Positions 17,895 through 35,610 of a DNA stretch of 64,000 bases are shown here, piece after piece. The position numbers and the translations under genes are program-made. Below the pieces are notes generated by a model that was given only the letters and a program-made list of their open reading frames with translations, was not told the origin of the DNA and searched no databases. The DNA lies in assembly GCA_963821385.1 (NCBI GenBank), contig CAWGDK010000005.1, positions 31,538 to 95,537 of the forward strand, given 5' to 3'. This DNA is from an uncultured Gemmatimonadales bacterium (GTDB taxonomy: Bacteria > Gemmatimonadota > Gemmatimonadetes > Gemmatimonadales > GWC2-71-9). Positions within the stretch are counted from its first letter, which is position 1; each line of letters opens with the position of its first letter.

Positions 17895-20800
17895 TCAATG
17901 ACAGGAGCTGGTGCCGGAATCCGCGTACGTCCCCTGCCCCTGCGCGTGCAGGAACTCCCAGCGATAGGAGTTTGCGTACAGGGTCAGCCGGATTACACCC
18001 CGCGAGAAATTGCCGTTGTCGCTGGCCTCGACGTTGGGCGGGGAGTTGACGTAGTTGGCGTGGGTCTCCCCCCCACCGGTCCCCACGATGAACTCCCGGA
18101 TGCCGGAGGCGCTCGCATTGCCCAGGGAGTCTTGCTGGGCAAATCGCTCATACAAGTGATCGTGCCCGTTGATGACGACCTCGGCCCCACCGTTCTGCAA
18201 CGCCTGCCACAGGCGTCTGATTCGCGACGATCCGCCATTCGACGGCCCGGATGTGAACAAGGCGCGGTGCCAGATGGCCAGGACACACTGGTTGGCCCGT
18301 CCCACGAGATCGCTCTGCAACCACGTCAGCTGGCCGGATGCGGGGTTGGTGACCCCGGAATCGCTGTTGAGGACGACGACGTGCCACGTGCCCAGGTCAA
18401 AACTGTAATACCCGAATCCGTTGCCCAGTGGATCGGCGACCGCCGGGCCGAAGTAGGCCATGTAGGGTGCGGCTGTGCTGCTGCTGTCGTATTCGTGATT
18501 CCCGCTCACCGGACGGGTCCGCGCCTTGTGCCGCCCCCAGGTGGGATCATAGCAATTCGTGAAATTCGTGGCCGTCCCATTCGGATACGCGTTGTCGCCG
18601 GCGGCGAACACGACGCCCGGAAGGCTGTCGACCTGATTGGCGGTAGCGTCGTCTCGAATCGAGTTGCAGTCGGCGATATCGCCGGCACCGACCAGGGTCG
18701 GTACGACTACCGCGGCTCCCGTCTGGATGATGGCGGTCCCTCCCGCCGTCGCCGAAATCGTCTTGGCCTCGACCACGGAGGAATTGAACGCCGCGGCAAA
18801 CACCCCGCTCGCATTCGTGTTGCCCGACGCGGATGGGCTGAATCCATTCCCTGTCCCGCTCGCCGACAGCACGACGGGCGACCCGCTGACGAGATTGCCG
18901 AACTGGTCCTTGACGGTGACCGTCACGGTGGACGCGTGGATGGCGGGAACGCAGGAGAACGCGCACTGGCCGATGGTGTCGGTGGCGGCGACCAGGCTCG
19001 AGAGCGAGGCATCGACCCCATCGGCGGCGATGGCAAAAGCCGCGCTGGTGACGGGCGTCAATCCACTGGAGGTCGCGTGCAGGGTGTAGCCCGCAGCGGC
19101 TTTGTCGATACTGAGGTTCGAGAAGGTCGCCACCCCGCTCGCCGCGGAAACCGAGGTGGTCCCGGACAGATTGCCGCTTCCCGGGTTCGCCGCCAGGGCC
19201 ACGGTGACGGTGTTCGAGGCGGTCGTGACGCGGTTGCCACCGAGGTCGCGAATCTCCACTCGCACCGGCGGTGCGATCGCGCCCCCCGCAGTCGCGTCGG
19301 AAGGCGGCGTCAGGAATCCCAGCTGGGCGGTCGCACCGACGCTGATATTGAACGTGCTCGAGGTGGCATCGTCGAGTCCCGAGGCCGTCGCCGTCAGCCG
19401 ATACCCCGTGCCCGCGCTGTCGATCTGCAGGGAGCTGAACGTCGCCACGCCACCGGTGGCGGCGAGAGTAGTGGTGCCAGAGAGCGTTCCATTGTTCGGG
19501 TTCGTGCCGATCGCAACCGTCACACTATTGGTGGCTCCGCTCACGCGGTTTCCGCCGGCGTCCTGGATCTCGATCTTCACGGCCGGTGTCAGTATCGCGC
19601 CACCGGCAGCGTTCGGCGGTTGAACCAGGAAGCCAAGCTTCGCGGCCGCCCCGACGGTGATGCTGAACGTGGTCGACGCTGCGCCCGCCAGCCCGCTGGC
19701 GGTGACGTTCAACGTATAACCCACGCCCGCGCTGTCGATGCTCAGGGTACTGAACGCCGCCACGCCGCCGACGGCGGCCACCGTCTTGGTCCCGGAGAGC
19801 ACCCCGCTGTTCGGATTGTTCCCGAGCGAGACCGTCACACTGTTGGTCGCGCCCGGCACCAGATTCCCCCCCGCGTCCTGAATCTCCACGTGAACGGACG
19901 GGCTGATCGGGGCGCCGCCGGGCGTCGTGGACGGCTGGACGACAAACGAGAGTTTGACCGCAGTCCCGATGATGATGTCGAAGCCGCTCGACGTCGACCC
20001 CGTAAGCCCTGTGGCGGTCGCGCTCAGGGTGTAGGCGGCCCCGGCGTTGTCGATGCTCAAATCCGAGAATGTCGCCAATCCGCCTGCGGACGAGACGGGA
20101 GTCGTCCCGGACAACGTCCCGCTCCCCGGGTTGTTCGCAATCGCCAACGCGATACTGTGCGAACCGGTGGTGACGCGGTTCCCACCGGCATCCCGGACCT
20201 CCACCTGTACCGCCGGCGCGATCGTCGCCCCGCCCCCGGTGTTGGACGGTTGCGTGCGGAATCCAAGTCGTGCCGCCGGCCCGACGGCCACGCTGAATAC
20301 GGTTGATGTGTCTCCGGTCAGCCCTGTCGCTGCGGCGGTCAGCGTGTAGCCCGTCGCCGCGCTGTCGACCGACACGTCATTGAAGGTGGCCACACCGGAG
20401 GATGCGGCTCGGGAGGTCGTGCCGCTGAGGGTTCCGTTGTTCGGGTTGGCGCCGAACGCCAGCGTAATGTTGTTGGAGGCCGCCGTCACTCTGTTGCCGC
20501 CACCGTCTTGGACCTCGACTTGGACCGCCGGGGAGATCGTGGCGCCACCGTTGGCGCTCGAAGGCTGAACCAGGAATGCCAAGTGTGCCGCCGCGCCGAC
20601 GGCGATGGTGAAGGCCCCCGATGTCGCACTGCTCAATCCTGTGGCGGAGGCCGTCAGGGTGTAGCCCGTGCCGCTCTTGTCGATGCTCAGACCGGCGAAT
20701 GTCGCAATCCCGGACACCGCCGAATGGAGCGTCGTGCCCGACAGGGTGCCGCTCGCCGGGTTGGTTCCGATCGCCACCGTGACGGTCCCCGTGAAGCTCG

Positions 20801-22490
20801 TGTCCGTATTACCGAGACTGTCCCGCGCGGTGACTTGCACGGCCGGGGTGATCGGCGACGCGGCAGCGGTGTTGGACGGTGAGGTGGTGAACACCAGTTG
20901 CGTGGCCGCTCCCGGCGTCACGGCGAAGCTGATGCTCGTATCCGGGACGAGCCCGCTGCTTGTCGCGCGAAGTCGATAGCTGCCGCCGGACTGGTTGACG
21001 CTCAGGTCGTTGAACGTCGCGACCCCGGCCGAGGCGGCCCTGCTCTTGGTCCCCGACAACGTTGCGCCACCGGCGTTCAAGAGCGCGATGGTCACACTGT
21101 TGTTCGCGGTGGCGACGCGATTGCTGAAGGCGTCCAGCACCTCGACCTGGACGGCGGGGGCGATGGTGATTCCCGCGGTCGTGCCCGTGGGGTCCGTGAG
21201 GAATGACAACCGGCTCGCGACTCCCGGCGTGATGCTGAAGTCGTTCGAGACCGCCGTGGTGAGCCCGGTGGCCGCGGCCGCGAGCGAATAGCCCGTGCCG
21301 GCCTTGTCGATACTCAGGGACGAAAAGGCCGCCACGCCGGCCACCGCCGGCAGGGTCGTGGTACCGGAGAGCACCCCGCCGCTCGGGTTGTCGAGGATCG
21401 CAATGGTTACACTATTCGTCGCCGTCGTCTCCCGATTGCCGAAGGCGTCTTGGATCTCTATCTGCACGCCTGGCGTCACCATCGCGCCCGCGACGGTCGT
21501 CGACGGTTGGGCGGCAAACGCCAGCACCGCCGCCGCCCCGGGGGTGACGGTGATGGTGTCGGTTTGGGTGACCACGACGCCGGCGATGGTGGCGGATGCC
21601 ACTTTCGTCTCCGCCACGGTCGAGCTGACCGCACCCGTCGCTACGCCCGCGACGTTGGTGGTGCCCACCGGCTGTGTGATGGCATTGCCCGATCCCGTTA
21701 CCGAGAGAACAACGGACGCGCCGGCGACGGGATTCCCCTGGGAGTCCCGCGCGGTGACGGTAATCGTCGCCGCACTCGCCCCCGAGCTGGCGGTGATCGC
21801 CGTTGGCGCCGCCGTGAGGCTCGACTGCGTGGCGGAAATCCCCCCCGCGATGACGTTGAAGGCGCTCGACGTGGTGCCCGTGAGCCCGGTGGCGCCCGCC
21901 GTCAGCGTGTACCCTGTGCCGGCCTTGTCGAGACTGAGGTTGCCGAATGTGGCCACTCCAGCCACGGCGGCCTTGGTCGTCGTCCCTGAGAGCGTGCCGC
22001 CCGCCGGATTGGCGCCGATGGCGATCGTGATGGTGGCGGTAAACGAGGTCGCGGTGTTGCCGAACGCATCTTGGGCGTTCACCTGCACCGCTGGGGCGAT
22101 CGGCAACCCCGCGCCCGTGGTCGTCGGCTGAACCACGACCACGAGTCGCGTGGCCGTGCCGGCGTTCACCGTGATGATCGCCGTCCCGGTCTTCCCTTCG
22201 CTGGTGGCGGTGATCGTGACGACACCGGGACGCTTCCCGCTCACCAGGCCCGTCGCATCCACCGTGGCACTGGTTGTGTCGCTGCTGGACCAGGCAATGG
22301 CGCGTCCGGTGAGACTGGTGCCGTTCGCATCCTTCAGAACGGCCGTCAGCTGCAGGGTGGCGCCAGCCGCTAGCGGCGCGGTGAGCGGGCTCAGGGTGAC
22401 GGACGCCACCGGCGCCGCCGGCCCGATATCCGAGCCGCACGCGACGGCGAGTATCGCCACCCAGCACCGAAATCGGGTCGCCCGATTCAT
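17895..22490 (-). CDS. giant surface lipoprotein: Big_2 module plus about 11 Ig-like repeats plus C-terminal metallophosphoesterase (paralog of 13555..17778)
   Basis: Start taken at ATG 22490 (MNRATRFRCWVAILAVACGS lipobox, GGGAGG upstream); the longest ORF extends to 22553. C-terminal motifs GAGDIADC, AGDNAYPNG, GNHEY, VLNSD, GHDHLYE. Confidence 0.85.
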   Translation of the reverse strand: MNRATRFRCWVAILAVACGSDIGPAAPVASVTLSPLTAPLAAGATLQLTAVLKDANGTSLTGRAIAWSSSDTTSATVDATGLVSGKRPGVVTITATSEGKTGTAIITVNAGTATRLVVVVQPTTTGAGLPIAPAVQVNAQDAFGNTATSFTATITIAIGANPAGGTLSGTTTKAAVAGVATFGNLSLDKAGTGYTLTAGATGLTGTTSSAFNVIAGGISATQSSLTAAPTAITASSGASAATITVTARDSQGNPVAGASVVLSVTGSGNAITQPVGTTNVAGVATGAVSSTVAETKVASATIAGVVVTQTDTITVTPGAAAVLAFAAQPSTTVAGAMVTPGVQIEIQDAFGNRETTATNSVTIAILDNPSGGVLSGTTTLPAVAGVAAFSSLSIDKAGTGYSLAAAATGLTTAVSNDFSITPGVASRLSFLTDPTGTTAGITIAPAVQVEVLDAFSNRVATANNSVTIALLNAGGATLSGTKSRAASAGVATFNDLSVNQSGGSYRLRATSSGLVPDTSISFAVTPGAATQLVFTTSPSNTAAASPITPAVQVTARDSLGNTDTSFTGTVTVAIGTNPASGTLSGTTLHSAVSGIATFAGLSIDKSGTGYTLTASATGLSSATSGAFTIAVGAAAHLAFLVQPSSANGGATISPAVQVEVQDGGGNRVTAASNNITLAFGANPNNGTLSGTTSRAASSGVATFNDVSVDSAATGYTLTAAATGLTGDTSTVFSVAVGPAARLGFRTQPSNTGGGATIAPAVQVEVRDAGGNRVTTGSHSIALAIANNPGSGTLSGTTPVSSAGGLATFSDLSIDNAGAAYTLSATATGLTGSTSSGFDIIIGTAVKLSFVVQPSTTPGGAPISPSVHVEIQDAGGNLVPGATNSVTVSLGNNPNSGVLSGTKTVAAVGGVAAFSTLSIDSAGVGYTLNVTASGLAGAASTTFSITVGAAAKLGFLVQPPNAAGGAILTPAVKIEIQDAGGNRVSGATNSVTVAIGTNPNNGTLSGTTTLAATGGVATFSSLQIDSAGTGYRLTATASGLDDATSSTFNISVGATAQLGFLTPPSDATAGGAIAPPVRVEIRDLGGNRVTTASNTVTVALAANPGSGNLSGTTSVSAASGVATFSNLSIDKAAAGYTLHATSSGLTPVTSAAFAIAADGVDASLSSLVAATDTIGQCAFSCVPAIHASTVTVTVKDQFGNLVSGSPVVLSASGTGNGFSPSASGNTNASGVFAAAFNSSVVEAKTISATAGGTAIIQTGAAVVVPTLVGAGDIADCNSIRDDATANQVDSLPGVVFAAGDNAYPNGTATNFTNCYDPTWGRHKARTRPVSGNHEYDSSSTAAPYMAYFGPAVADPLGNGFGYYSFDLGTWHVVVLNSDSGVTNPASGQLTWLQSDLVGRANQCVLAIWHRALFTSGPSNGGSSRIRRLWQALQNGGAEVVINGHDHLYERFAQQDSLGNASASGIREFIVGTGGGETHANYVNSPPNVEASDNGNFSRGVIRLTLYANSYRWEFLHAQGQGTYADSGTSSCH

Positions 22491-22525
22491 GCTCCTCCCG
22501 TCTCTACCGTAGATTGATCGGCGCC

Positions 22526-23749
22526 ATGCCGACCCGTCCGCCGCTGCTGCCACGCTCGATCGCCCGGCTCGCCCTCGGGGCCGCGCTCGGATTCATTCTC
22601 CTGACCACGCTGGCACCCTTCCCCGGCGCACGCGCGCCGGACTTCGTCGGGTGTCTGATTTGCGGCACCCGAGGCTCGGCGGACGCGCTCGTCAATCTCC
22701 TCCTGTACATACCCCTTGGCGCCGCCCTGATGATAAACGGACGGGCGGGCGGACGGACGGTCGCCCTGGCCGGAATGTTGTCGGCGGGTATCGAATTCCT
22801 TCAGATCTTCATTCCGGGCCGTGATCCCAGCCTGGGAGACGTATTCTTCAATACCGGCGGCGCCGCGGTGGGCCAGGTCACCGTGCACTTCCTGGCGCGA
22901 TGGGCGACTCCGGACGCGCGCACCGCCGCACGCCTTTCGGTCGCCGCCGCCTTGACGGCGCTCGGTGTGTTCGGTCTGACGGGATGGCTGCTGCGGCCAG
23001 CGCTCCCCGTATCCGCGTTTCGCGCCTGGTACACGGCCGATCGACCAGATCTCGAGTTTTACCACGGCCGTGTGCTGAGCACGACCCTGGGGGCGGTTCC
23101 GTTCAGCACCGCCGACGTTCCGAACCCCGGTGAAGTGCGCCACCTGCTCCTCACCGGGGCCCCCTTGCATATCCTGGCAGTCGCCGGCCCGCGCGTCCGC
23201 GCGCTCGGCCCGTTGTTTGTGATCGAAAACCGATGGGGAGAAGAGATCTTTCTCCTCGGCCCTGATCGCGACGACCTCGTGCTGCGGTATCGCACGCGAG
23301 CCGCCGCGCTGCGACTCGATCAGCCGGACCTGCGGCTGCGTGACGCCTTTGCCGGAGTCGCTGCCGGCGACACCCTGCGAATCGAGGTGAGGCGGGAGCA
23401 CGGTGCGTATTGCCTCGCGGTCAACCGAGCAGGTGCGTGCGGACTCGGGTTCACGCTGGGCAGCGGCTGGGCCGTGCTGTTGTACCCGAGACACTTTCCG
23501 CCGTGGCTGCAGCAGCTGTTGAGCATCGGGTGGGTGGCCGGCATCGCCTTCCCGGTGGGATTCTGGGCGCGGCGGCGTTGGGAAAGCGGGCTCGCCTGGG
23601 TCGTGCTCGGGAGCGGGCTGGCTCTCGTCCCACTGTTCACAGCCCTGGTTCCGACGCCGGCCAACCAGTGGGTGGGCGCGGGCGCCGGGGCGCTGTCCGG
23701 AGTGGCGCTCGGGTTGCTGGTCGGTCGCCGGAATACGCAGACGCGCTAG
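22526..23749 (+). CDS. VanZ-like family membrane protein with extended C-terminal region
   Basis: N-terminal VanZ-like pattern (LLTTLAPFP..NLLLYIPLGAAL..IEFLQIFIPGRDPSLGDV) and terminal TM helices. ATG 22526, or TTG 22514. Confidence 0.6.
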   Translation: MPTRPPLLPRSIARLALGAALGFILLTTLAPFPGARAPDFVGCLICGTRGSADALVNLLLYIPLGAALMINGRAGGRTVALAGMLSAGIEFLQIFIPGRDPSLGDVFFNTGGAAVGQVTVHFLARWATPDARTAARLSVAAALTALGVFGLTGWLLRPALPVSAFRAWYTADRPDLEFYHGRVLSTTLGAVPFSTADVPNPGEVRHLLLTGAPLHILAVAGPRVRALGPLFVIENRWGEEIFLLGPDRDDLVLRYRTRAAALRLDQPDLRLRDAFAGVAAGDTLRIEVRREHGAYCLAVNRAGACGLGFTLGSGWAVLLYPRHFPPWLQQLLSIGWVAGIAFPVGFWARRRWESGLAWVVLGSGLALVPLFTALVPTPANQWVGAGAGALSGVALGLLVGRRNTQTR

Positions 23750-26935: not shown

Positions 26936-28454
26936 CTATCGCTCGTAGGCGCCCAGGTCGGCTCCCTGCCCCCGCGCGCGGCAGAGGCCGTCGATATCGA
27001 ACGGCGCCGCGTACGTCGCATCGGCCTGATCGATAGCGGGGCTTCCGGCCTTCAGATGCAGGTCGTTGGCGTAGGCCTGATGCGTGGTCGACGGGGTGGA
27101 GGCTGTCGGGTTGACCAGGAACGGATCGGCCACGACGTTGCCGACGATGGTGGCATTGGTGTTCCAGTGACTGGTCCCGTCGTTGCCGTTGTTCCAGAAC
27201 ATGTTGTGGATCTCGACATTGCTGCTGCCGCCACTGGATCCGCCGGTATTGATCCCCACCCCGTCGTTCACGTTGCCATTATTGACGACGATGTTGTTCG
27301 CGAACACCCAATCGTGCGTGCTTTCGGCGATGTCCATGCCGGACCGGCCGTTGCCGACGACCGTATTGTTGACGACGAGGATGTGATTCGCACTGAACCG
27401 CGCCGAGAGACCTTTGGCGCGATTGTGCTCCAGCACGTTGTTCGCCACGACCCCTCGGGTCCCGTCGTGATAGTAGATCCCGTGCGATGTGTTTTCCTGA
27501 CTGGGGTCGTTGAACCCGCCGTTGTCGTGGATGTAGTTGCCCAGAATCCAGATGTCGTCCCCCCCGGCCGCGATCCCGGCATGCCAGCCGCCGTGAAACA
27601 CTTCCGAGTTCGATACTTCGATATGGTGGCTGGCCCCCGGATCCATCTGGACCAGGTTTTCTCCCTGCCGGGAGGACGCCCCCCATGGACCACAGCTCGG
27701 GCCCTCGACCACGACACTCGATAGCCGGAAATACGATCCGGACAGTCGAATCTGCCCGTGCAACACGGCGCGTTCCCCGGCATACCCCTGTACCGTGATC
27801 GGCGCCGCGGGCGCTCCCGCCCGTTTGAATGTCGACGCCGTACAAAAGGCGCCGTACGTCCCAGCCCGCAGATACGCGATCTGCCCCGGTTGGAGCGCAT
27901 CGAAGGCCTTCTGCAGTGTCTTCCATGGCGCCTGAAGCGTACCCGGATTGGCATCCGACCCCGCGGTGGCGGAGACGTAAAACGCCGTCCCCGTGGACAA
28001 CGGCATCCGTGGGTAGATCGCACTCGGCCACGGATTGGGGCACCCGGTGGCGGGCGGCGGCGGCGGCGGCGGGGGGGGGCGGCGGGGGCGGCGGTGTCGA
28101 CCCCGTCACCTGCACCGCCGCGGACGCGGATTGATTCTCACAGGTCGCGGTGATTGTGACCGTGCCTCCGGCCATGCCATAGACCAGACCACTGGCATCG
28201 ACGGTGGCCACATTGGGATCGCTGCTGGCCCACGTCACGACGCGGTTCTCCAGCGGCGCGCCGCTCGAGTCCTGGGGGGTGGCGTGCAGCTGCACGCTTT
28301 CGCCCGCCGTCACGGTCGCATCGGCCGGTGTCACGGCGACCGTCGCGACCGGCGGACCCGCAGGCCCCGCCGTGCGATCGAGCACACAGGCAGGCATCAA
28401 CAGACACAAGGCAAGCAGGGTCACAACAACGGTGTGTTGGCGATGCTGAAGCAT
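26936..28454 (-). pseudogene. Big_2 - polyPro - beta-helix lipoprotein (paralog 3), reading frame broken by +1 nt in a C9 run
   Basis: ORF from 28454 gives signal LALCLLMPAC plus a Big_2 domain plus STPPPPPPPP, then nonsense. The beta-helix frame (ORF 26936..28006) is open upstream through PPPPPPPPPATGCPNPW to the same run (28071-28079). The span is 1519 nt = 3n+1. SD GGGAGG lies 7 nt upstream of ATG 28454. Confidence 0.7.
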
Positions 28455-28564
28455 AAACGACCTCCCGCGTCGGCGTGAGCGGCGGTGTGGTGGATGGCCG
28501 ACTTACGGCGGAAGGAAGGCGGACCACGCGGAGCGACCGGCCGCCTCGTCCGACCGAAGTCGAA

Positions 28565-28654
28565 TCGCTGGCGGCCCGGCTGGCCTGGCGGAGACATCCG
28601 CGGTAGCCCCGTGACTCTGCGTCACCGCCTTTCGACGGCTTTGCTCTGAGCAGC
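28565..28654 (-). promoter_or_regulatory. GEMM-I class cyclic-dinucleotide riboswitch aptamer (copy A)
   Basis: Minus strand reads CGCUG-CUCAGA-GCAAA-GCCGUC-GAAA-GGCGGU-GACGCAGAG-...hairpin...-AGCCGGGCCGCC-AGCG. It matches the GCAAA / GNRA hairpin / GACGCAAAGC / AGCCGGGCUGCC blocks of c-di-GMP-I. Covariation is seen against copies B and C. Confidence 0.75.
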
Positions 28655-28673
28655 GTCCTGCTGTGGCAGCTGC

Positions 28674-28712
28674 TCCCACGGCGCGATGCCGCTGCGGCAT
28701 CGCGCCCGTGGG
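28674..28712 (-). terminator. strong GC hairpin immediately after the Big_2-metallophosphoesterase stop
   Basis: CCCACGGGCGCGAUGCC-GCAGC-GGCAUCGCGCCGUGGG on the minus strand (about 16 bp with one bulge). It starts 16 nt after the stop at 28728. No U-tract. Confidence 0.45.
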
Positions 28713-28727
28713 GCAGATTCGTCGTGC

Positions 28728-30146
28728 CTAGTGGCACGTTCCGCTGCCGGTGTCCGTGAACGACTGGCCGGCAACGGGGACAAACTCCCAGGCATAGGTG
28801 CCCGGCCCGAGCGTGAACTTCAGGACCCCAAACGTGGTCCCGTTGAACACCTCACTGTTGGCCAAGGGCGTTCCCTGCCCGTAGTGGCTCTCCCCGCCCG
28901 TTCCGGCAATGAATTCGCGGATCCCGTTGACCGGGTCCGCGTCGCCGCTCGGCGTCTGGAGAGCGAACCGCTCGTAGTTATGCTCGTGACCAGCGAGAAC
29001 GATTTCGGCGTGGAAGTCGTACAGCGCCTGCCACAACGGTTGGGCCGAGCTCAGGCTGCCGTGGTGGCTGCCGCTCGAGAAGCGGGGTTTGTGCCAGTAC
29101 GCCAGCGTGCAGGTTTTGGACGACGCGGCGAGGTCTGCGCGCAGCCACGTCTCCTGCGCCGATCCAGCGCTCATCGACGTTTCGCTATTCAGCGAAACGA
29201 TGTGCCAGTCCCCTAGGTCGTAGCTGTAGTAGCCGCGCCCTGATGGTCCAGCGAGATCGCCGAAGTATCCGTAGTAGCCGGCCGCGCCACTGGTGTTGTA
29301 GTCGTGATTTCCCGGGGCCGGCCGCGTGCGCGTCTTGTGTCGTCCCCAGGTGGGATCGTAGCACTGGGAGAACTGCGAAGCGGTACCGCTGGAGTACACG
29401 TTGTCGCCCAGCGTGTAGACTGTTCCCGGAATGCCGTCGAGCAGCGCCGCGGTGGCCTCATCGTTGTCGTTGCCACAGTCGGAAATGTCTCCGGCGCCCG
29501 CGAAGACGATGCCGCCCGCCGTGCTCATCACAGTCACGCTCGCCGTGTCGGCCAGGGTGCCGCCGGCCTCGAGCGCGATGACGCGGTACGTTCCGGCAGC
29601 GGATCCGGCGGTGTAGAGACCCGTGGCCGTGATCGACCCGCCCGTCGCGTCATAGCTCACCACCGCTGCCACGGAATCACCGTTACTCATCCGGCCGTAC
29701 ACGGCGAACTGTTGCGTGCCGGCGATTGAGACTGTCACGGCTGCCGGCACGAGCACCACCTGCGCGAGAACGGCGGGTCCACTCACCGTGACCGTGACGT
29801 CCGCGGTATCGGCCAGCGTCCCACCCACCTGCGTAGCGATCACTTGATAGGTGCCGGCGACTCCGCCCGCGATGTAGCGGCCATCGGCGTCGATGGTCCC
29901 ACCAGTGGCGCTCCACGCGACGGTCACGGGCTGGGTATCGCCTTGCGCCGTGCGCGCGGCGGCCTCGAACTGCAACGATTGGCCGGCGGGGACATTCGTG
30001 GTTTCGGGTGTGATGACGATTTCCTCGACATCGGTAGGACCGCTGGGTGGTCTGGAGCGCTCGCAGGCGGTCGAGATGGCGATCAGGACGACGAGCGGGT
30101 GCGCGAGCCATGTGCGCCCTCGCGTCCCAGTGCGTAGATGGTGCAT
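28728..30146 (-). CDS. lipoprotein: three Big_2-like modules plus C-terminal metallophosphoesterase (short paralog of the giants)
   Basis: Lipobox LIAISTAC. C-terminal motifs GAGDISDC, LGDNVYSSG, GNHDY, SLNSE, GHEHNYE and a C-terminal SGTCH as in the giants. SD AAGGAGG lies 6 nt upstream of ATG 30146. Confidence 0.85.
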   Translation of the reverse strand: MHHLRTGTRGRTWLAHPLVVLIAISTACERSRPPSGPTDVEEIVITPETTNVPAGQSLQFEAAARTAQGDTQPVTVAWSATGGTIDADGRYIAGGVAGTYQVIATQVGGTLADTADVTVTVSGPAVLAQVVLVPAAVTVSIAGTQQFAVYGRMSNGDSVAAVVSYDATGGSITATGLYTAGSAAGTYRVIALEAGGTLADTASVTVMSTAGGIVFAGAGDISDCGNDNDEATAALLDGIPGTVYTLGDNVYSSGTASQFSQCYDPTWGRHKTRTRPAPGNHDYNTSGAAGYYGYFGDLAGPSGRGYYSYDLGDWHIVSLNSETSMSAGSAQETWLRADLAASSKTCTLAYWHKPRFSSGSHHGSLSSAQPLWQALYDFHAEIVLAGHEHNYERFALQTPSGDADPVNGIREFIAGTGGESHYGQGTPLANSEVFNGTTFGVLKFTLGPGTYAWEFVPVAGQSFTDTGSGTCH

Positions 30147-30165
30147 TGGGCACCTCCTTCACGGG

Positions 30166-30217
30166 ACAACAACGCACGGGCCGCCAACGTCGACCCGTGT
30201 CGAAGCGCTGGCGGCCC
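30166..30217 (-). terminator. putative riboswitch-B expression platform (terminator stem using the aptamer 3' strand)
   Basis: Minus strand GGGCCGCC..UCGAC-ACGG-GUCGA..GGCGGCCC followed by GUGCGUUGUUGU. Confidence 0.45.
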
Positions 30218-30297
30218 GGCCGACCTGGCAGGATGGCTCCCGCGGTAGTCCCGTGGCTCTGCGTCACCGCCTTTCGGCGGCTTTGCTCTGAGCAGCG
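30206..30297 (-). promoter_or_regulatory. GEMM-I class cyclic-dinucleotide riboswitch aptamer (copy B, proximal of tandem pair)
   Basis: Same block structure as copy A. The P2 hairpin is GCCGCC-GAAA-GGCGGU. The P3 helices differ from copy A by compensatory changes. Confidence 0.75.
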
Positions 30298-30339: not shown

Positions 30340-30388
30340 ACAACGAAAGGGCCGCCCCCTTCGACCAAGGTCGAATCGCTGGCGGCCC
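30340..30388 (-). terminator. putative riboswitch-C expression platform (intrinsic terminator using the aptamer 3' strand)
   Basis: Minus strand GGGCCGCC-AGCGAUUCGACCUUGGUCGAAGGG-GGCGGCCC followed by UUUCGUUGU. Confidence 0.5.
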
Positions 30389-30469
30389 GGCGGGCATGGC
30401 GGAGGAGGATTCCGCGGTAGCCCCGTGACTCTGCGTCACCGTCTTTCGACGGCTATGCTCTGAGCAGCG
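30377..30469 (-). promoter_or_regulatory. GEMM-I class cyclic-dinucleotide riboswitch aptamer (copy C, distal of tandem pair)
   Basis: Same block structure. The P2 hairpin is GCCGUC-GAAA-GACGGU (U-A where copy A has U.G and copy B has C-G). Confidence 0.75.
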
Positions 30470-30595: not shown

Positions 30596-31771
30596 CTATG
30601 GCTGAGACACGATCCGATAGAGGTCGCCGCCCAGCGTCGTGATGTACAACGCGCCACGCGCGTCCTCGCCGAAGGAGCTAAGTCCTCCGCTCACCGCTAA
30701 GGCCGGCCAATCAAGTGGATCGGTGGCCTGTCCGCCGCTGAAACGGAATGAGCGCACCCAGCCGCTGCAATAGTCCCCATACAGGTAACGTCCCAGCAGA
30801 TCCGGCACCGTGCTGTCGCGCGACACATATCCGCCCGTCACCGAGCACCCTTCTCCGTGGCTGTATTCCAGGACCGGGAGGGCGAGACCCGGCACGGGGC
30901 AGGACGAAGCCGCGTAGCAGTGCAATCCCTCCATCTCATTCCAACCGTAGTTCCCACCACTGGGCGCGCCGGCCGGCAGCACATCCACTTCCTCCCAGGC
31001 GTTCTGGCCCACATCACCCAGGTAGAAATCCCCCGTCTGTCGGTCGAACGAGAAGCGCCATGGGTTCCGCACGCCGTAGACCCAGATCTCCCCGCGCGCA
31101 CTCGTATCGCCGACAAACGGATTGTTGGACGGAATGGCGTATGGTACCCCGGCATCCACATCCAATCGCAGGATCTTGCCGAGTAGAGCCTTCCGATTCT
31201 GCCCGTTCCCATCCGGGTCCCCGCCTCCGCCACCATCGCCCAAGCCGGCGTACAGCTTGTCATCCGGTCCGAACAACAACAGCCCGCCGTTGTGATTGGA
31301 TTGGGATCGGTGGCCCACGGTGAGCACGGTGTCCCCGGAAGTGGAGTCGGCGATATCCGGGTTCGACGACACGAGATATCGTACGATCCGAAGGTCACCC
31401 GATGGAGTGGTGAAATAGACGTAGAACTGGCCGTTCCCGGCGTAGTCGGGATGAAACGCCAGGCTCAACAACCCGCGTTCGCCCCCCGCGGAAATGTGAC
31501 CGGAAATGTTCAAGAACGGCGTGACCAGCAGCGTATCGTGGTGCAAGACACGGATCCGACCACCCTGCTCCACCACAAACAGGCGCGCTGTGTCCCCCGG
31601 CGGCGTCGTGACGAAAATGGGCGAGCTGAGGCTGCCGGTGACCAAGTGGAGCGCCGGCGTTCCCGGTCCCGGGCCAGGGCCAGGCCCAGGGCCCGGACCA
31701 GGACCCGGGCCCGCGGCCGTCCGCTCGCACGCCAACAAGGCCAGCGCCCACGCCACCCACCGTGCCGTCAT
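30596..31771 (-). CDS. PQQ-dependent soluble sugar (glucose/sorbosone) dehydrogenase, lipoprotein with (PG)8 linker
   Basis: HNGGLLLFGPDDKLY, GDGGGGGDP, LGKILRLD and GVRNPWRFSFD beta-propeller motifs. Confidence 0.85.
   Translation of the reverse strand: MTARWVAWALALLACERTAAGPGPGPGPGPGPGPGPGTPALHLVTGSLSSPIFVTTPPGDTARLFVVEQGGRIRVLHHDTLLVTPFLNISGHISAGGERGLLSLAFHPDYAGNGQFYVYFTTPSGDLRIVRYLVSSNPDIADSTSGDTVLTVGHRSQSNHNGGLLLFGPDDKLYAGLGDGGGGGDPDGNGQNRKALLGKILRLDVDAGVPYAIPSNNPFVGDTSARGEIWVYGVRNPWRFSFDRQTGDFYLGDVGQNAWEEVDVLPAGAPSGGNYGWNEMEGLHCYAASSCPVPGLALPVLEYSHGEGCSVTGGYVSRDSTVPDLLGRYLYGDYCSGWVRSFRFSGGQATDPLDWPALAVSGGLSSFGEDARGALYITTLGGDLYRIVSQP
31662..31712 (-). repeat. imperfect GGNCCN hexanucleotide repeat encoding (Pro-Gly)8
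   Basis: Translates as GPGPGPGPGPGPGPGPG directly after the signal peptide of the dehydrogenase. Confidence 0.8.
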
Positions 31772-31780
31772 CGTGCCTCC

Positions 31781-33127
31781 CTAGCCCGACCCCAATACCA
31801 CATCGATTCCGTCCCGACGCAGCTTACCTATCATCCGAGCTTCGACCCGGGCGGTGACCTCCACCACACCGTCGCTGTGCGTCTCCCGCAGTACTTCCGC
31901 CTCACGGTGCAATTCGGCCAACAAGCGCCCGTCCGCGAGTGGGACGCGCACGCGGACAATCGGCCGCAGGGCCTGCGCCGAGGTCCGCAGGGCCGCCTGC
32001 AGGGCGACGACGCCCGGCGGGCGATCATCGTGCGCGGCACTGGTCAAGACGGCGTGGGGGAATCGCTCGCGCTCGCGAGCCAGGAACACCTCGGGCTCCG
32101 GCAAGAGGTCCGCCTTATTGAAAACATGAATCACGCGCTTCCGCCCGATCTCCTCCAACACCCGCTCCACCACGTCGACCTGCTCTTCCCAGGTCGGGTG
32201 CGCCGCATCGATCACGTGCAGCAGCAGATCGGCGTCCCGGACCTCTTCCAGCGTGGCACGAAACGAGGCCACGAGGTGATGGGGCAGTTTGCGGATGAAC
32301 CCGACCGTATCACTGAGGCGGAACCGGTATCCTTCGCCGACATCGATTTCCCGTGTCACCGTGTCGAGGGTGGCGAACAGCCGATCTTCGATCAACACGT
32401 CGGCGCCGGAGAGTGCCTGCAACAGGCTCGATTTGCCGGCGTTGGTGTACCCGACGAGCACCGCCTGGGGAAGATCGCGACGGCCCTGACGCTGGTTGGC
32501 CCGGTGCTCCGCCACACCCTCGAGCCGGCGTCGCAACACCGAGATCTTGCGGCGGATGACGCGGCGATCGGTCTCGAGCTGGGTTTCCCCGGGGCCGCGC
32601 AATCCGATCCCGCCGCGGATGCGCGACAGGTGGGTCCACATCCGGGTGAGTCGCGGGAGCAGGTACTCGAGCTGGGCCAGTTCCACCTGCATTTTCGCCT
32701 CGGCGCTGCGGGCTCGCGTGGCGAAAATGTCGAGGATGATCTCAGCGCGGTCCATGACGCGGACGCCGGTGGTCTTCTCGAGGTTGACGCCCTGCACCGG
32801 AGAGAGCGGCTCGTCGAACAGGATCAACGTCGCCGCCGCTTCCTGCAGCCGCTCCTGCAATTCGCCGGCCTTCCCCTGCCCGAGATAGAGATTGGGGGTG
32901 GGCGCGTCGATGCGCTGCACCAACCGGCCCACCACATCCGCCCCGGCGGTATCGGCGAGCCGGCCGAGCTCGTTCAGGTGCTCATCGACGCGGGTAGCAT
33001 CGTCGGACCCCTTGCGGGGAGCGCCGACCAGGAATGCCCGCTCCACCGGAAGCTGGATTTCGATCAGCCGGCGAATGGCTGAGCCTCCCGCCGGGTCGTC
33101 AGGGTCGCAAGGCTCGGAGCGGGACAT
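31781..33127 (-). CDS. hflX: GTPase HflX
   Basis: GETQLETDRR, G1 motif VGYTNAGKSSLL, DTVGF, NKAD. Confidence 0.9.
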   Translation of the reverse strand: MSRSEPCDPDDPAGGSAIRRLIEIQLPVERAFLVGAPRKGSDDATRVDEHLNELGRLADTAGADVVGRLVQRIDAPTPNLYLGQGKAGELQERLQEAAATLILFDEPLSPVQGVNLEKTTGVRVMDRAEIILDIFATRARSAEAKMQVELAQLEYLLPRLTRMWTHLSRIRGGIGLRGPGETQLETDRRVIRRKISVLRRRLEGVAEHRANQRQGRRDLPQAVLVGYTNAGKSSLLQALSGADVLIEDRLFATLDTVTREIDVGEGYRFRLSDTVGFIRKLPHHLVASFRATLEEVRDADLLLHVIDAAHPTWEEQVDVVERVLEEIGRKRVIHVFNKADLLPEPEVFLARERERFPHAVLTSAAHDDRPPGVVALQAALRTSAQALRPIVRVRVPLADGRLLAELHREAEVLRETHSDGVVEVTARVEARMIGKLRRDGIDVVLGSG

Positions 33128-33569
33128 CCCCGCTCGTGTGCACGTTCACCCGGCGATCACCGATCGGCGTGCCCAACGTGGCGACCCCCGTCAGGCCGTA
33201 GCCAATCGCCTGGCGGGTCAGGAGACTGCGCGCGCCGGCCCCGAGTCCGGCCCATTCGAATCGGACCGGCACAATCACCAGACTGTGCTGTTGCGCCGGG
33301 AGCTCCACAACGTTCTCCAGCAGCGCATCACCGAAGTGCACTTGCTCGAGATCGAGACCCAATTCCAATCGGATGGTCTGCAGCCGAAAGTCATTGGGGT
33401 TCAGGACATCGAGGGCGAGATCCAGCGTGCCGCCGGTCAGGTCGAGCCCGGTGATCCGGACCTCCTGCAATTGCAGCGTCGGCGCCTCAAAGCGCAGCAC
33501 GTTCTGCAGGGTCGCACACCCGCAGATCAACAGGGCGTAGCCGACGGGACGCGGGAGCCGGCGGCTCAC
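33099..33569 (-). CDS. LEA type-2 / WHy-domain lipoprotein
   Basis: Lipobox LLICGCA. LEA14-like beta-sandwich pattern (LDLALDVLNPNDFRL..). GTGA overlap with the rarA stop. Confidence 0.55.
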   Translation of the reverse strand: MSRRLPRPVGYALLICGCATLQNVLRFEAPTLQLQEVRITGLDLTGGTLDLALDVLNPNDFRLQTIRLELGLDLEQVHFGDALLENVVELPAQQHSLVIVPVRFEWAGLGAGARSLLTRQAIGYGLTGVATLGTPIGDRRVNVHTSGDVPLRALRP

Positions 33570-34894
33570 GCGGGCTCCACGCGGTCGGTCGCTTCACGCT
33601 TGAGACGCTGCCACCAGTCCATACGTTCTTTCACCGTCTTTTCGTACCCGAAGTCGGTGGGCATGTACCATTGCGCGCCGCGCAACGCCTCCGGCAAATA
33701 CTCCTGCGGCGTGTAGGCCTCCGTGTGGTCGTGCGCATATTGATACTCCGCGCCGTATCCCAGCTCCTTCATCAGTTTGGTGGGCGCATTGCGGATATGC
33801 AGCGGCACCCCCTCCGCCGGGTGCGTCGCGGCAGCGGCCATCGCCTCCCCAAACGCTCGATACAGCCGGTTCGATTTCGGCGCCGTGGCGAGATAGACGG
33901 TCGCCTCGGCCAGCGCGAGCTCCCCTTCGGGAGAACCCAGAAAGTGATACGCGTCCTTGGCCGCGAGCGTGACATTCAGCGCGCGAGGGTCGGCCAACCC
34001 GACATCCTCGCTCGCGATCCGGACTAACCGCCGCGCCAGGTACAGCGGGTCCTCACCGCCGGCCAGCATCCGCGCCAACCAGTACAGCGCCCCTTCGACG
34101 TCGCTGCCGCGGACGGCCTTATGCAGCGCCGAAATGAGGTTGTAGTGCTCTTCACCGCCCTTATCGTACTTGGCAAATCGCTTCTGCAGGGCGTCCGCGA
34201 TCACTGCGCTTGTGAGTCGGCCCTGCCCCTTCAGAAACTCGGCACCCGCCTCGAGGGCCTGCAGGGCACGGCGGGCATCCCCATCCGCTTCGCGCGCCAG
34301 CAATGCCAGTGCCTCGTCGTCGATGGTGAGCGACAACCGAGCCAGGCCCCGGTCGGCATCGGACAGGGCCCGGCGGACCAACGTCGCCACGTGCTCTACT
34401 GTGAGCGGTTCCAGCACGAAGACGCGGCAGCGCGACAGTAACGCGCCCGTGAGCTCGAAGCTCGGATTCTCCGTTGTCGCACCGATCAACGTGACGATGC
34501 CGTTCTCGACCCACGGCAGAAAGGCATCCTGCTGCGCGCGATTGAACCGGTGAATCTCGTCACAAAAGAGGATCGTCCCCTGCCCCTGATACTTGCGGCG
34601 CTCTTCGGCCTCGTGAATGATCTCGCGCACGCGCGCCACGCCCTCGGTGACCGCGGAAAACGGCTCGAAATGACGCTCCGTGTAGTTCGCGATGATGCGG
34701 GCGAGGGTCGTCTTCCCCGACCCGGGTGGGCCCCAGAAAATGCACGAGCCCACATCGCCGCGCCGGATGAGCTCGCCGAGCGCCTTCCCGGGCCCCAGCA
34801 GCTGCTCCTGCCCCAGAAACTGTTCCAGCGTGCGCGGACGCATGCGGGCCGCCAGCGGCTCGGCCGAGCCCTGGAACAACGTGGATTCGGTCAC
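33566..34894 (-). CDS. rarA: replication-associated recombination protein A (AAA+ ATPase)
   Basis: GPPGSGKTTLA, FCDEIHRFN and an MgsA C-terminal region. GTG 34894 overlaps the ZIP stop (GTGA). Confidence 0.9.
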   Translation of the reverse strand: MTESTLFQGSAEPLAARMRPRTLEQFLGQEQLLGPGKALGELIRRGDVGSCIFWGPPGSGKTTLARIIANYTERHFEPFSAVTEGVARVREIIHEAEERRKYQGQGTILFCDEIHRFNRAQQDAFLPWVENGIVTLIGATTENPSFELTGALLSRCRVFVLEPLTVEHVATLVRRALSDADRGLARLSLTIDDEALALLAREADGDARRALQALEAGAEFLKGQGRLTSAVIADALQKRFAKYDKGGEEHYNLISALHKAVRGSDVEGALYWLARMLAGGEDPLYLARRLVRIASEDVGLADPRALNVTLAAKDAYHFLGSPEGELALAEATVYLATAPKSNRLYRAFGEAMAAAATHPAEGVPLHIRNAPTKLMKELGYGAEYQYAHDHTEAYTPQEYLPEALRGAQWYMPTDFGYEKTVKERMDWWQRLKREATDRVEPA

Positions 34895-35610
34895 CAGATC
34901 CGCTCGAGCAGCAGTTTGGTCGCGTAGAACACCGCGGCGCCGGCAAAGAAGGCGGCCGGGAGCCCCCATCCCCGCTTCCCCTGGAATTCAGGTACCAGAT
35001 TGGACGCGGCGACATACAGGGTGACGCCTCCCGACAGCGCGAGGCCATGGGTGACCAGCACCCCGACGTAGTCCGTGAGGAGCACTCCAGCCACGGTCGC
35101 CGCGCCCAGCAGAGCCGCGGCGCGCAGGGCGACGACGGGAGAGCGGCCCCCCGCCAGCATCAGACTGGCGATGGTCACGCCTTCCGGAAGCTTGTGGAGC
35201 AGGATCGCGACGAACACCATCACGCCCAGCTGGGGGCCAATGAGGAACGCGCTCGCGATCGCCACGCCATCGAAGAAAGTGTGCAGCAACAATCCAATAA
35301 GCGCCGACGTGCCCGCGACGGCGCTGACGCTGTGCGTCTCTTCGCCGAAGTGAAAGTGGGGGGTCACGGTGTGCTGGGTGAGATGGACCGCCAGGTAGCC
35401 GGCCAGGATCATCGCGGGGGCCATGGGGCCGCTCCGCACCAGGGCCGCGGGGACGATCTCCGTGAGGCACACCGCCAGCATGAACCCCGCCCCGAACGCG
35501 ACGAAGTACCCGATCGCCCGGAGCCCGGCGGTGGCGTTCCGGGTGACGGCGACCGCGCCGATGACGTTCCCCGCCGCCGCCACGACGGCGTACACCAAGG
35601 CGCCGTTCAT
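34891..35610 (-). CDS. zupT: ZIP family divalent-metal transporter
   Basis: Eight hydrophobic segments and the HKLPEG motif. ATG 35610 overlaps the cca stop (ATGA). Confidence 0.8.
   Translation of the reverse strand: MNGALVYAVVAAAGNVIGAVAVTRNATAGLRAIGYFVAFGAGFMLAVCLTEIVPAALVRSGPMAPAMILAGYLAVHLTQHTVTPHFHFGEETHSVSAVAGTSALIGLLLHTFFDGVAIASAFLIGPQLGVMVFVAILLHKLPEGVTIASLMLAGGRSPVVALRAAALLGAATVAGVLLTDYVGVLVTHGLALSGGVTLYVAASNLVPEFQGKRGWGLPAAFFAGAAVFYATKLLLERIW

Follow-up and report, generated by a model that had tools for sequence, protein, structure and literature searches.

The DNA analyzed here is a stretch of 64,000 nucleotides (hereafter the window) from an uncultured Gemmatimonadales bacterium (GenBank assembly GCA_963821385.1, contig CAWGDK010000005.1, positions 31,538 to 95,537). 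On its minus strand, three copies of a GEMM-I riboswitch aptamer, the Rfam class RF01051 named after cyclic di-guanosine monophosphate (c-di-GMP-I), are interspersed with two lipoprotein genes: copies 3 and 2 stand in tandem ahead of gene 2, and copy 1 lies between gene 2 and gene 1. Gene 2 (28728..30160, minus strand) comprises a Shine-Dalgarno (SD) sequence, GAAGGAGG (30160-30153), and an open reading frame (ORF) of 472 amino acids (28728-30146, ATG at 30146), the product of which is a lipoprotein with Big_2 and calcineurin-like metallophosphoesterase domains (Pfam Metallophos, 4.2e-09). Gene 1 (26936..28454, minus strand) encodes a lipoprotein with Big_2 and right-handed beta-helix domains (Pfam Big_2 and Beta_helix; ~505 amino acids if intact). 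Its start codon (ATG 28454-28452) and SD sequence (GGGAGG, 28466-28461) were read from the sequence, and the ATG was measured to lie 111 nt past aptamer 1, in agreement with the ~110 nt given in a preliminary description of this DNA.

The reading frame of gene 1 is split in two (28454 to ~28065, and 28006 to 26936), and the frame switch falls inside a C-rich poly-proline tract (28091-28050) that includes a run of ~9 C. The ORF starting from ATG 28454 is protein-like for ~130 residues, which comprise a signal peptide, a Big_2 domain, and the poly-proline stretch. Comparison with P0013, an intact orthologue of 496 amino acids with Big_2 and a Pel9A-like beta-helix, gave 69% identity for this N-terminal part, and 87% identity to P0013 residues 141-496 for the second ORF (28006-26936, 356 amino acids). 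As the frame of gene 1 is broken, a homologue search with the 391-residue ORF matched the Big_2 domain only. The break is either a real frameshift (a pseudogene or a slippery tract) or an assembly error. The earlier label of a Big_2/beta-helix lipoprotein gene is right in that both halves match P0013, but the frame is interrupted in the window.

The whole window was scanned on both strands with Rfam 15 at gathering thresholds (35 for RF01051). Exactly three matches were obtained, all of them to RF01051, on the minus strand, and without truncation (model positions 1-87 of 87): 28655-28567 (56.9 bits, E-value 1.8e-08), 30297-30207 (55.0 bits), and 30469-30378 (51.9 bits). The E-values ranged from 1.8e-08 to 3e-07 for the window. 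The RF01051 search proposed in the preliminary description thus places all three copies above the gathering score. A permissive scan (E ≤ 1) revealed no other family near the three aptamers, its sole extra match being an unrelated chance match at 63.6 kb.

Aptamer 1 spans 28566..28655 (minus strand), with P1 formed by 28655-28651 and 28570-28566. The corresponding 90-mer (28655-28566) reads CGCUGCUCAGAGCAAAGCCGUCGAAAGGCGGUGACGCAGAGUCACGGGGCUACCGCGGAUGUCUCCGCCAGGCCAGCCGGGCCGCCAGCG (CGCUG...CAGCG). Aptamer 2, the promoter-distal member of the tandem, spans 30206..30297, and aptamer 3, the promoter-proximal member, 30377..30469. The intervals given earlier were correct for these two and shifted by one base for copy 1 (28565-28654). 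All three copies share the block layout that had been described for GEMM-I: P1 (CGCUG/CAGCG), GCA(A/U)A, a 6-bp helix capped by GAAA, GACGCAGAG, the P3 hairpin, and GCCGGGCCGCC. The GAAA tetraloop caps P2 in each of the three, and P3 has the CUA and A-G residues of the Rfam consensus on its flanks. With a score above the gathering threshold over the full model, P1, P2, and P3 backed by covariation, and a GNRA loop together with the receptor-side motif of P3, the three RNAs are genuine members of the GEMM-I fold.

Compensatory changes are visible among the window copies themselves. In alignment A1, made up of 87 distinct aptamers among which are the three window copies, the P2 pair in columns 21/28 reads U.G, C-G, and U-A across the three copies, and the inner P3 reads GCGGA/UCCGC versus GCGGGA/UCCUGC; both had been pointed out before and are borne out by the alignment. 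For the outer P3, the swap from G-C (columns 49/84, copies 1 and 3) to A-U (copy 2) is real, but the partner strings quoted for it were slightly imprecise. To collect relatives, each GTDB species was represented by one genome and searched with the pattern CAGAGCANA-N6-GAAA-N6-GACGCARAG, which returned at least 120 loci. Among the matches listed, Gemmatimonadota (Gemmatimonadales and Longimicrobiaceae) were in the majority, and the others came from Nitrospirota and from a few Deltaproteobacteria, Chloroflexi, and Firmicutes.

Alignment A1 was tested against the Rfam consensus structure plus P1, that is, against a structure taken from Rfam and not derived from the 87 sequences. Standard pairs occupied 93.8% of the pair cells, and changes on both sides were found in 18 of 27 pairs (P2 6/6, inner P3 4/4, outer P3 5/10), with P1 covariation arising partly by construction, since the P1 3' ends had been located by complementarity. 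None of 500 column shuffles attained the observed covariation values, and pairing fell to 23-50% when the 3' partners were slid by 1-3 columns. Two further contigs (L241 and L242) encode orthologues of the Big_2/beta-helix protein and carry the same aptamer and a near-identical switching hairpin upstream of the gene; L242 differs by one base in the hairpin (GGUCGGU for GGUCGGA), and the gene order of L241 is that of the window. The preliminary description had named orthologous loci without structure-preserving covariation as evidence that would speak against it. The opposite was found, because both contigs carry aptamer and switching hairpin ahead of the orthologous gene, and the 87 aligned sequences covary.

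In each copy, a GGCGGCC(C) segment ~20 nt downstream forms the complement of the aptamer 3' strand GGGCCGCC, which comprises the C that pairs with a guanine of the ligand as well as the 3' strand of P1. The terminator of riboswitch 3 (30340..30388, minus strand) is built from GGGCCGCC (30388-30381) paired with GGCGGCCC (30356-30349) around UUCGAC-CUUG-GUCGAA and ends in the tail UUUCGUUGU (30348-30340). It combines an 8-nt complement with 6 T, folds with -27.1 kcal/mol, and was matched by a terminator scan. The terminator of riboswitch 2 (30166..30217, minus strand), in which GGGCCGCCAGCG (30217-30206) pairs with CGUUGGCGGCCC (30189-30178) around UCGAC-ACGG-GUCGA ahead of the tail GUGCGUUGUUGU (30177-30166), was matched by the scan as well (-35.3 kcal/mol, 9-nt complement, 5 T). 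In both copies the terminator competes for the aptamer 3' strand, which is the arrangement of an ON-type platform. The 5' arm of the terminator contains both the P1 3' strand and the C that pairs with the ligand, so that an RNA would either bind ligand or form the terminator, but not both.

The same order of elements, namely aptamer, small hairpin (AUCGAC-N4-GUCGA), (C/U)UGGCGGCC(C), and a U-rich tail, was seen in nearly every Gemmatimonadota copy, and (C/U)UGGCGGCC(C) is complementary to the aptamer 3' sequence GGGCCGCCAG. Among 127 aptamers with adenine at position 20 (A20; numbering of Vibrio cholerae Vc2) and enough downstream sequence, 93 were followed within 90 nt by a perfect complement to the 3' core, 7 nt or longer, compared to a rate of 5% in shuffled downstream sequence. 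The median spacer of the real complements was 20 nt, and at least 5 T within the 9 nt after the complement were present in 78 of the 93.

In the switching hairpin of copy 1 (28537..28579, minus strand), CCGG-GCCGCC (28579-28570), a segment that takes in the top of P1 and the equivalent of C92, pairs with GGCGGCCGG (28545-28537). A small hairpin, UCGAC-UUCG-GUCGG (28563-28550), is enclosed between them. The switching hairpin contains a 7-nt exact complement and folds with ~-31 kcal/mol. Copy 1 is one of four U-tract-poor cases among the 99 aptamers with a complement of at least 6 nt. In L242, a normal tail (CCCUUUUCG) is followed directly by SD and AUG, and the window and L241 carry an additional 80-130 nt containing a CCGCC(U/C)UCC(U/C)UUCC box. 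The window box, CCGCCUUCCUUCC (28510..28522, minus strand; CCGCCCUCCCUUCC in L241), is with low confidence a possible anti-Shine-Dalgarno sequence and partner of the switching strand. Local and constrained folds were used in place of whole-leader minimum free energy (MFE) folds, which were uninformative for this sequence of 67% GC (z = -0.51 against shuffles for the copy 1 leader). In these folds, the SD of gene 1 was wholly paired with the CCGCCUUCCUUCC box when the aptamer 3' strand was free, and was partly released when the aptamer was enforced, two of its nucleotides then being 0.67 and 0.94 unpaired. A translational relay (CCUUCC:GGGAGG) is kept for copy 1 at low confidence only, since the opening is partial and was not reproduced in L241. 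Copy 1 may act through termination, either leaky or dependent on a factor, or through occlusion of the SD.

At this point it may be asked whether the elements work at all, or are repeated GC-rich intergenic sequences or decayed copies that merely resemble GEMM-I. The lack of a U tract in copy 1, the broken frame of gene 1 in the window, and a global MFE of the copy 1 leader no better than that of shuffled sequence would fit such decay. They have to be set against full-length Rfam matches with covariation across 87 relatives, a placement that is kept both before the same families of genes and at orthologous loci, and a terminator coupling that is conserved in the A20 aptamer set. Non-working elements are therefore highly improbable.

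The ligand pocket deviates from the canonical one at two positions. In c-di-GMP riboswitches, one guanine of the ligand is read on its Hoogsteen face by G20, the other is base-paired to C92, and A47 intercalates between the two. The counterpart of G20 in Clostridioides difficile Cd1 is G11, and the published constructs G11A and G11C alter precisely this base (PMC9262584). Mapping via Cd1 G11 identifies the nucleotide directly 5' of GCAAA as the equivalent of Vc2 G20. All three window copies read CAG-A-GCA(A/U)A, so that RF01051 model position 11 (consensus G) is A. The equivalents of A47 (GACGC-A) and C92 (GCC) are kept, and of the canonical triad G20/A47/C92 only position 20 is replaced, by A in 3/3 copies. 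In aptamer 1, A20 is located at 28645, A47 at 28618, G48 at 28617, and the C92 equivalent at 28571; A20 and G48 are at 30287 and 30259 in aptamer 2, and at 30459 and 30431 in aptamer 3. Riboswitches for 3',3'-cyclic GMP-AMP (also written 3',3'-cGAMP or c-AMP-GMP, hereafter cGAMP), the GEMM-Ib subclass, carry an adenine in place of G20, in Gs1761 as A14 (PMC6140456). By this residue the window aptamers depart from canonical c-di-GMP-I and resemble GEMM-Ib, a subclass that is itself defined by ligand selectivity. The preliminary description had not flagged A20; its wording of a cyclic-dinucleotide riboswitch and its suggestion of testing both c-di-GMP and 3',3'-cGAMP were nevertheless apt.

Position 48 is G in all three copies (GACGCA-G-AG), where the consensus has A. 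A metagenome sample was scanned with an unbiased pattern in which N was allowed at positions 20 and 48, and the matches were distributed as follows: G20/A48 111, A20/G48 15, A20/A48 4, and G20/G48 0. G48 was seen only together with A20 (Fisher's exact p = 2e-16), which suggests a co-adapted pocket.

We read the three RNAs as class-I GEMM riboswitches of an A20 (GEMM-Ib-like) type, acting as ON switches for secreted Big_2 lipoproteins, and assign this reading a probability of about 0.6. Its most likely ligand is 3',3'-cGAMP, since A20 is a signature, if not proof, of cGAMP sensing; c-di-GMP may possibly be bound as well. Without ligand, the long alternative hairpin would form and, in copies 3 and 2, be followed by the U-rich tail, so that transcription would terminate. 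With ligand bound, P1 and the binding pocket would hold the 3' strand, the terminator would be blocked, and RNA polymerase would read through. Copies 3 and 2 stand in series before the 472-residue Big_2/metallophosphoesterase gene, and as both would need to be occupied, a steeper response would be expected. Copy 1 has the same switching helix, and would probably act by termination that is weak or needs a factor, or else by masking the ribosome-binding site.

A number of observations weigh against this reading, in addition to the partly built-in P1 covariation mentioned above. In copies 2 and 3 the U tracts are broken by other bases (5-6 U of 9), in copy 1 the switching helix is followed by none (just 2 T in the tail), and the SD release modelled for copy 1 is modest and was not reproduced with the orthologue L241. 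A20 alone is not selective for cGAMP: Vc2 G20A binds c-di-GMP with 53 nM and cGAMP with 120 nM, and the natural A20 aptamer Cbe 1-2 prefers c-di-GMP (30 nM versus 463 nM for cGAMP). The pilM aptamer of Geobacter metallireducens has A20 but A48, and its junction pair is CU/GG, not GC/GC, so that the A20/G48 type of the window is not identical to the tested Geobacter type. Literature searches, including searches with sequence strings, found no published experimental data on A20/G48 aptamers, the primary structure papers lying outside the search. Across the 64-kb window, domain annotation and motif scans for GGDEF, EAL, and HD-GYP gave no gene for a synthase or a phosphodiesterase of cyclic dinucleotides, and a search of the related loci with a Hypr-type GGDEF regular expression gave nothing usable. 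Hypr GGDEF enzymes have been described as deltaproteobacterial.

Several of these points would suit the same RNAs and the same ON mechanism with c-di-GMP as the physiological ligand, A20 being a lineage variant that binds it via a protonated adenine and the tandem serving to sharpen the c-di-GMP response. Tight c-di-GMP binding by Vc2 G20A and by natural A20 aptamers, the preference of Cbe 1-2, the lack of a cGAMP synthase within the window, and the reports of Hypr GGDEFs from Deltaproteobacteria all favor this alternative, as do the 347 known same-class c-di-GMP-I doublets, which have been read as "more digital" switches (PMC9481103). It is nevertheless rather unlikely: an A variant from D. 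acetoxidans gained affinity for cGAMP, the restriction of G48 to A20 aptamers suggests a co-adapted pocket, and, as described below, A20/G48 and G20/A48 aptamers share leaders in a way that is hard to explain with one ligand.

A sensor of another nucleotide signal, a further cyclic dinucleotide or an oligonucleotide such as cyclic di-AMP or the product of a CD-NTase, is quite improbable. This idea, under which the A20/G48 subclass would recognize neither c-di-GMP nor classical cGAMP, draws on the strict 20/48 linkage, on the fact that the tested cGAMP aptamer pilM has another nucleotide 48 and other junction pairs, and on a literature search that found no experimental data on the A20/G48 variant. 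The retention of C92 and A47, however, makes it probable that one guanine and the geometry of intercalation are preserved, A20 is isosteric for the recognition of adenine, and the simplest reading of a G-beta and an A-alpha is cGAMP.

The reading as A20-type ON switches for surface lipoproteins can be compared with the regulons of related loci. Among the Gemmatimonadota loci listed, the first gene after the aptamers nearly always encodes a lipoprotein with an unusual MPFTFKLSxRLA... N-terminus and a lipobox Cys, followed by Big_2 repeats with fused domains of the PF04185 phosphoesterase family or of the Metallophos, fn3, or beta-helix type. Both regulated genes of the window fit this pattern. 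In Nitrospirota, the same aptamer type precedes fn3-type surface proteins ("ATLSWDAPT...LAGYKVYYG").

Of 20 tandems in related Gemmatimonadota genomes and metagenome contigs, 12 had A20/G48 aptamers together with canonical G20/A48 aptamers in one leader, 150-210 nt apart, all of them confirmed as Rfam matches. The order is A20 then G20 in L024 (4669-4914), L059 (5346-5619), L085, L098, L113, L148, L196, and L214, G20 then A20 in L041 (6752-7016), L107, and L219, and A20, A20, G20 in L093 (6984-7416). Such mixed leaders are hard to explain with a single ligand and provide the main support for a ligand other than c-di-GMP. They look like a two-ligand logic gate; the logic-gate table of a 2022 survey of tandem riboswitches contains no pair of c-di-GMP-I and c-AMP-GMP (PMC9481103). 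Tentatively, and at somewhat less than even odds, A20/G48 may represent a distinct specificity subclass, for cGAMP or another dinucleotide that is not c-di-GMP, which would be widespread in Gemmatimonadota and Nitrospirota and often placed in series with canonical G20/A48 aptamers as two-signal gates.

In L093, a locus from Gemmatimonadota, 8 kb contain six RF01051 aptamers (at 313, 1594, 3977, 6984, 7139, and 7325), a higher density than the three in two kb of the window; those with a readable downstream ORF all precede lipoprotein genes. Matches of RF03167 (c-di-GMP-I-GGC) to the canonical G20 aptamers of L059 (5530-5619), L098, L113, L107, L148, and L214 were judged to be cross-hits, on the basis of A47 in L059, the sole alignment examined. 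Their scores were 60-68 bits, with a gathering score of 59 for this family. RF03167 belongs to the same clan as RF01051 and is similarly GC-rich in sequence, but its consensus has G at position 47 (GACGCGAAg), whereas the window copies read GACGCAGAG with GACGCA (A47). With A47 retained and the best score obtained with RF01051, assignment of the window copies to the GGC variant was ruled out.

Among known systems, canonical c-di-GMP-I riboswitches (RF01051; V. cholerae Vc2, C. difficile Cd1) share with the window copies the full model match, the P1/P2/P3 junction, GAAA on P2, the GACGC junction, the equivalents of A47 and C92, the association with surface and matrix genes, and frequent tandems. 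They differ in having G at position 20 and A at position 48, and (A)AA-G in the 5' junction, where the window reads CUCAG-A. Cd1 is furthermore an OFF switch, whereas the window copies look like ON switches. GEMM-Ib riboswitches of Geobacter (Gs1761 and Gm0970/pilM) resemble the window copies in A20 and in forming tandems ahead of genes for extracellular and surface proteins. In common with copies 2 and 3, they have a transcriptional ON design: the terminator takes up the P1 3' strand together with the C that pairs with the ligand. Sequestration of the ligand-pairing C75 by the terminator has been shown experimentally for the pilM cGAMP ON switch (PMC9262584), and deletion of the Geobacter cGAMP synthase lowers the expression of genes controlled by GEMM-Ib, as would be expected of ON switches. 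The pilM sequence, A-CU-AAA...GAC-GG-AAAG, differs from the window in its junction pair and in A48. These Geobacter riboswitches come from Desulfuromonadales and their regulon comprises cytochromes and pili, whereas the window derives from Gemmatimonadota, with Big_2 lipoproteins carrying phosphoesterase or beta-helix domains as the putatively regulated products. Tandem c-di-GMP-I riboswitches have been surveyed as 347 doublets and 12 triplets and termed "pseudo-cooperative" (PMC9481103). The window tandem likewise consists of two full aptamer-terminator units in series before one gene (30469-30340 and 30297-30166). Both of its units are A20, in contrast to the related Gemmatimonadota loci that mix A20 and G20.

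As a single locus, the window provides a routine annotation at the level of Rfam, and its added value is that of an entry point to a phylum-wide pattern. This pattern counts for more than the locus itself, the class GEMM-I being already known. Gemmatimonadota are a poorly studied, mostly uncultured soil phylum, and a literature search found no work on riboswitches or cGAMP in it. In this phylum, the switch ahead of Big_2 lipoprotein genes commonly takes the A20 (GEMM-Ib-type) form. If the variant truly prefers cGAMP, riboswitch-mediated cGAMP signalling would extend beyond Geobacter, and the mixed A20 and G20 tandems of related genomes would be natural two-messenger logic gates. If A20/G48 is a distinct subclass, a second, undescribed cyclic-dinucleotide pathway might control a large family of Big_2 surface lipoproteins in Gemmatimonadota and Nitrospirota, including secreted phosphoesterases and beta-helix enzymes.

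The surroundings of the two genes were annotated as well. Upstream on the minus strand are, in 5'-to-3' order, genes for MgsA/RarA (33566-34969), an LEA_2 protein, HflX (31781-33127), and a glucose/sorbosone dehydrogenase (30596-31771). The nearest named relatives of HflX are from Gemmatimonadales bacteria (83% identity), in keeping with a Gemmatimonadales-like host, to which the taxa with the same aptamer point as well. A consensus scan revealed no sigma-70-like promoter. Gene 1 is followed on the same strand by two further beta-helix genes and by two giant genes (17895-22553 and 13555-17778) for proteins of 1552 and 1407 amino acids with Big_1/invasin repeats and a C-terminal Metallophos domain; a VanZ-like gene lies on the plus strand (22514-23749). 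The riboswitches thus head a minus-strand cluster of ~16.6 kb for secreted Ig-like, beta-helix, and phosphoesterase proteins, the order of which is common to L241. Adjoining it at 1-13.5 kb is an exopolysaccharide cluster that encodes a Wzx-like flippase, a Wzy/O-antigen ligase, a GT2 glycosyltransferase, a polysaccharide deacetylase, and an Asn-synthase-like protein. The location of regulated Ig-like lipoproteins with metallophosphoesterase, PF04185, and pectate-lyase-like beta-helix domains beside this cluster points to control of cell-surface or matrix remodelling.

Between gene 2 and aptamer 1, a strong GC-rich hairpin of 17 bp with one bulge (CCCACGGGCGCGAUGCC...GGCAUCGCGCCGUGGG, 28675-28712, minus strand) and without a U tract was observed, 16 nt past the stop codon of gene 2 and 20 nt before aptamer 1. 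It may serve as a terminator or stabilizer for gene 2. Just past this hairpin, GAGCAGC (28674-28668) can pair with GCUGCUC, the P1 5' strand of aptamer 1.

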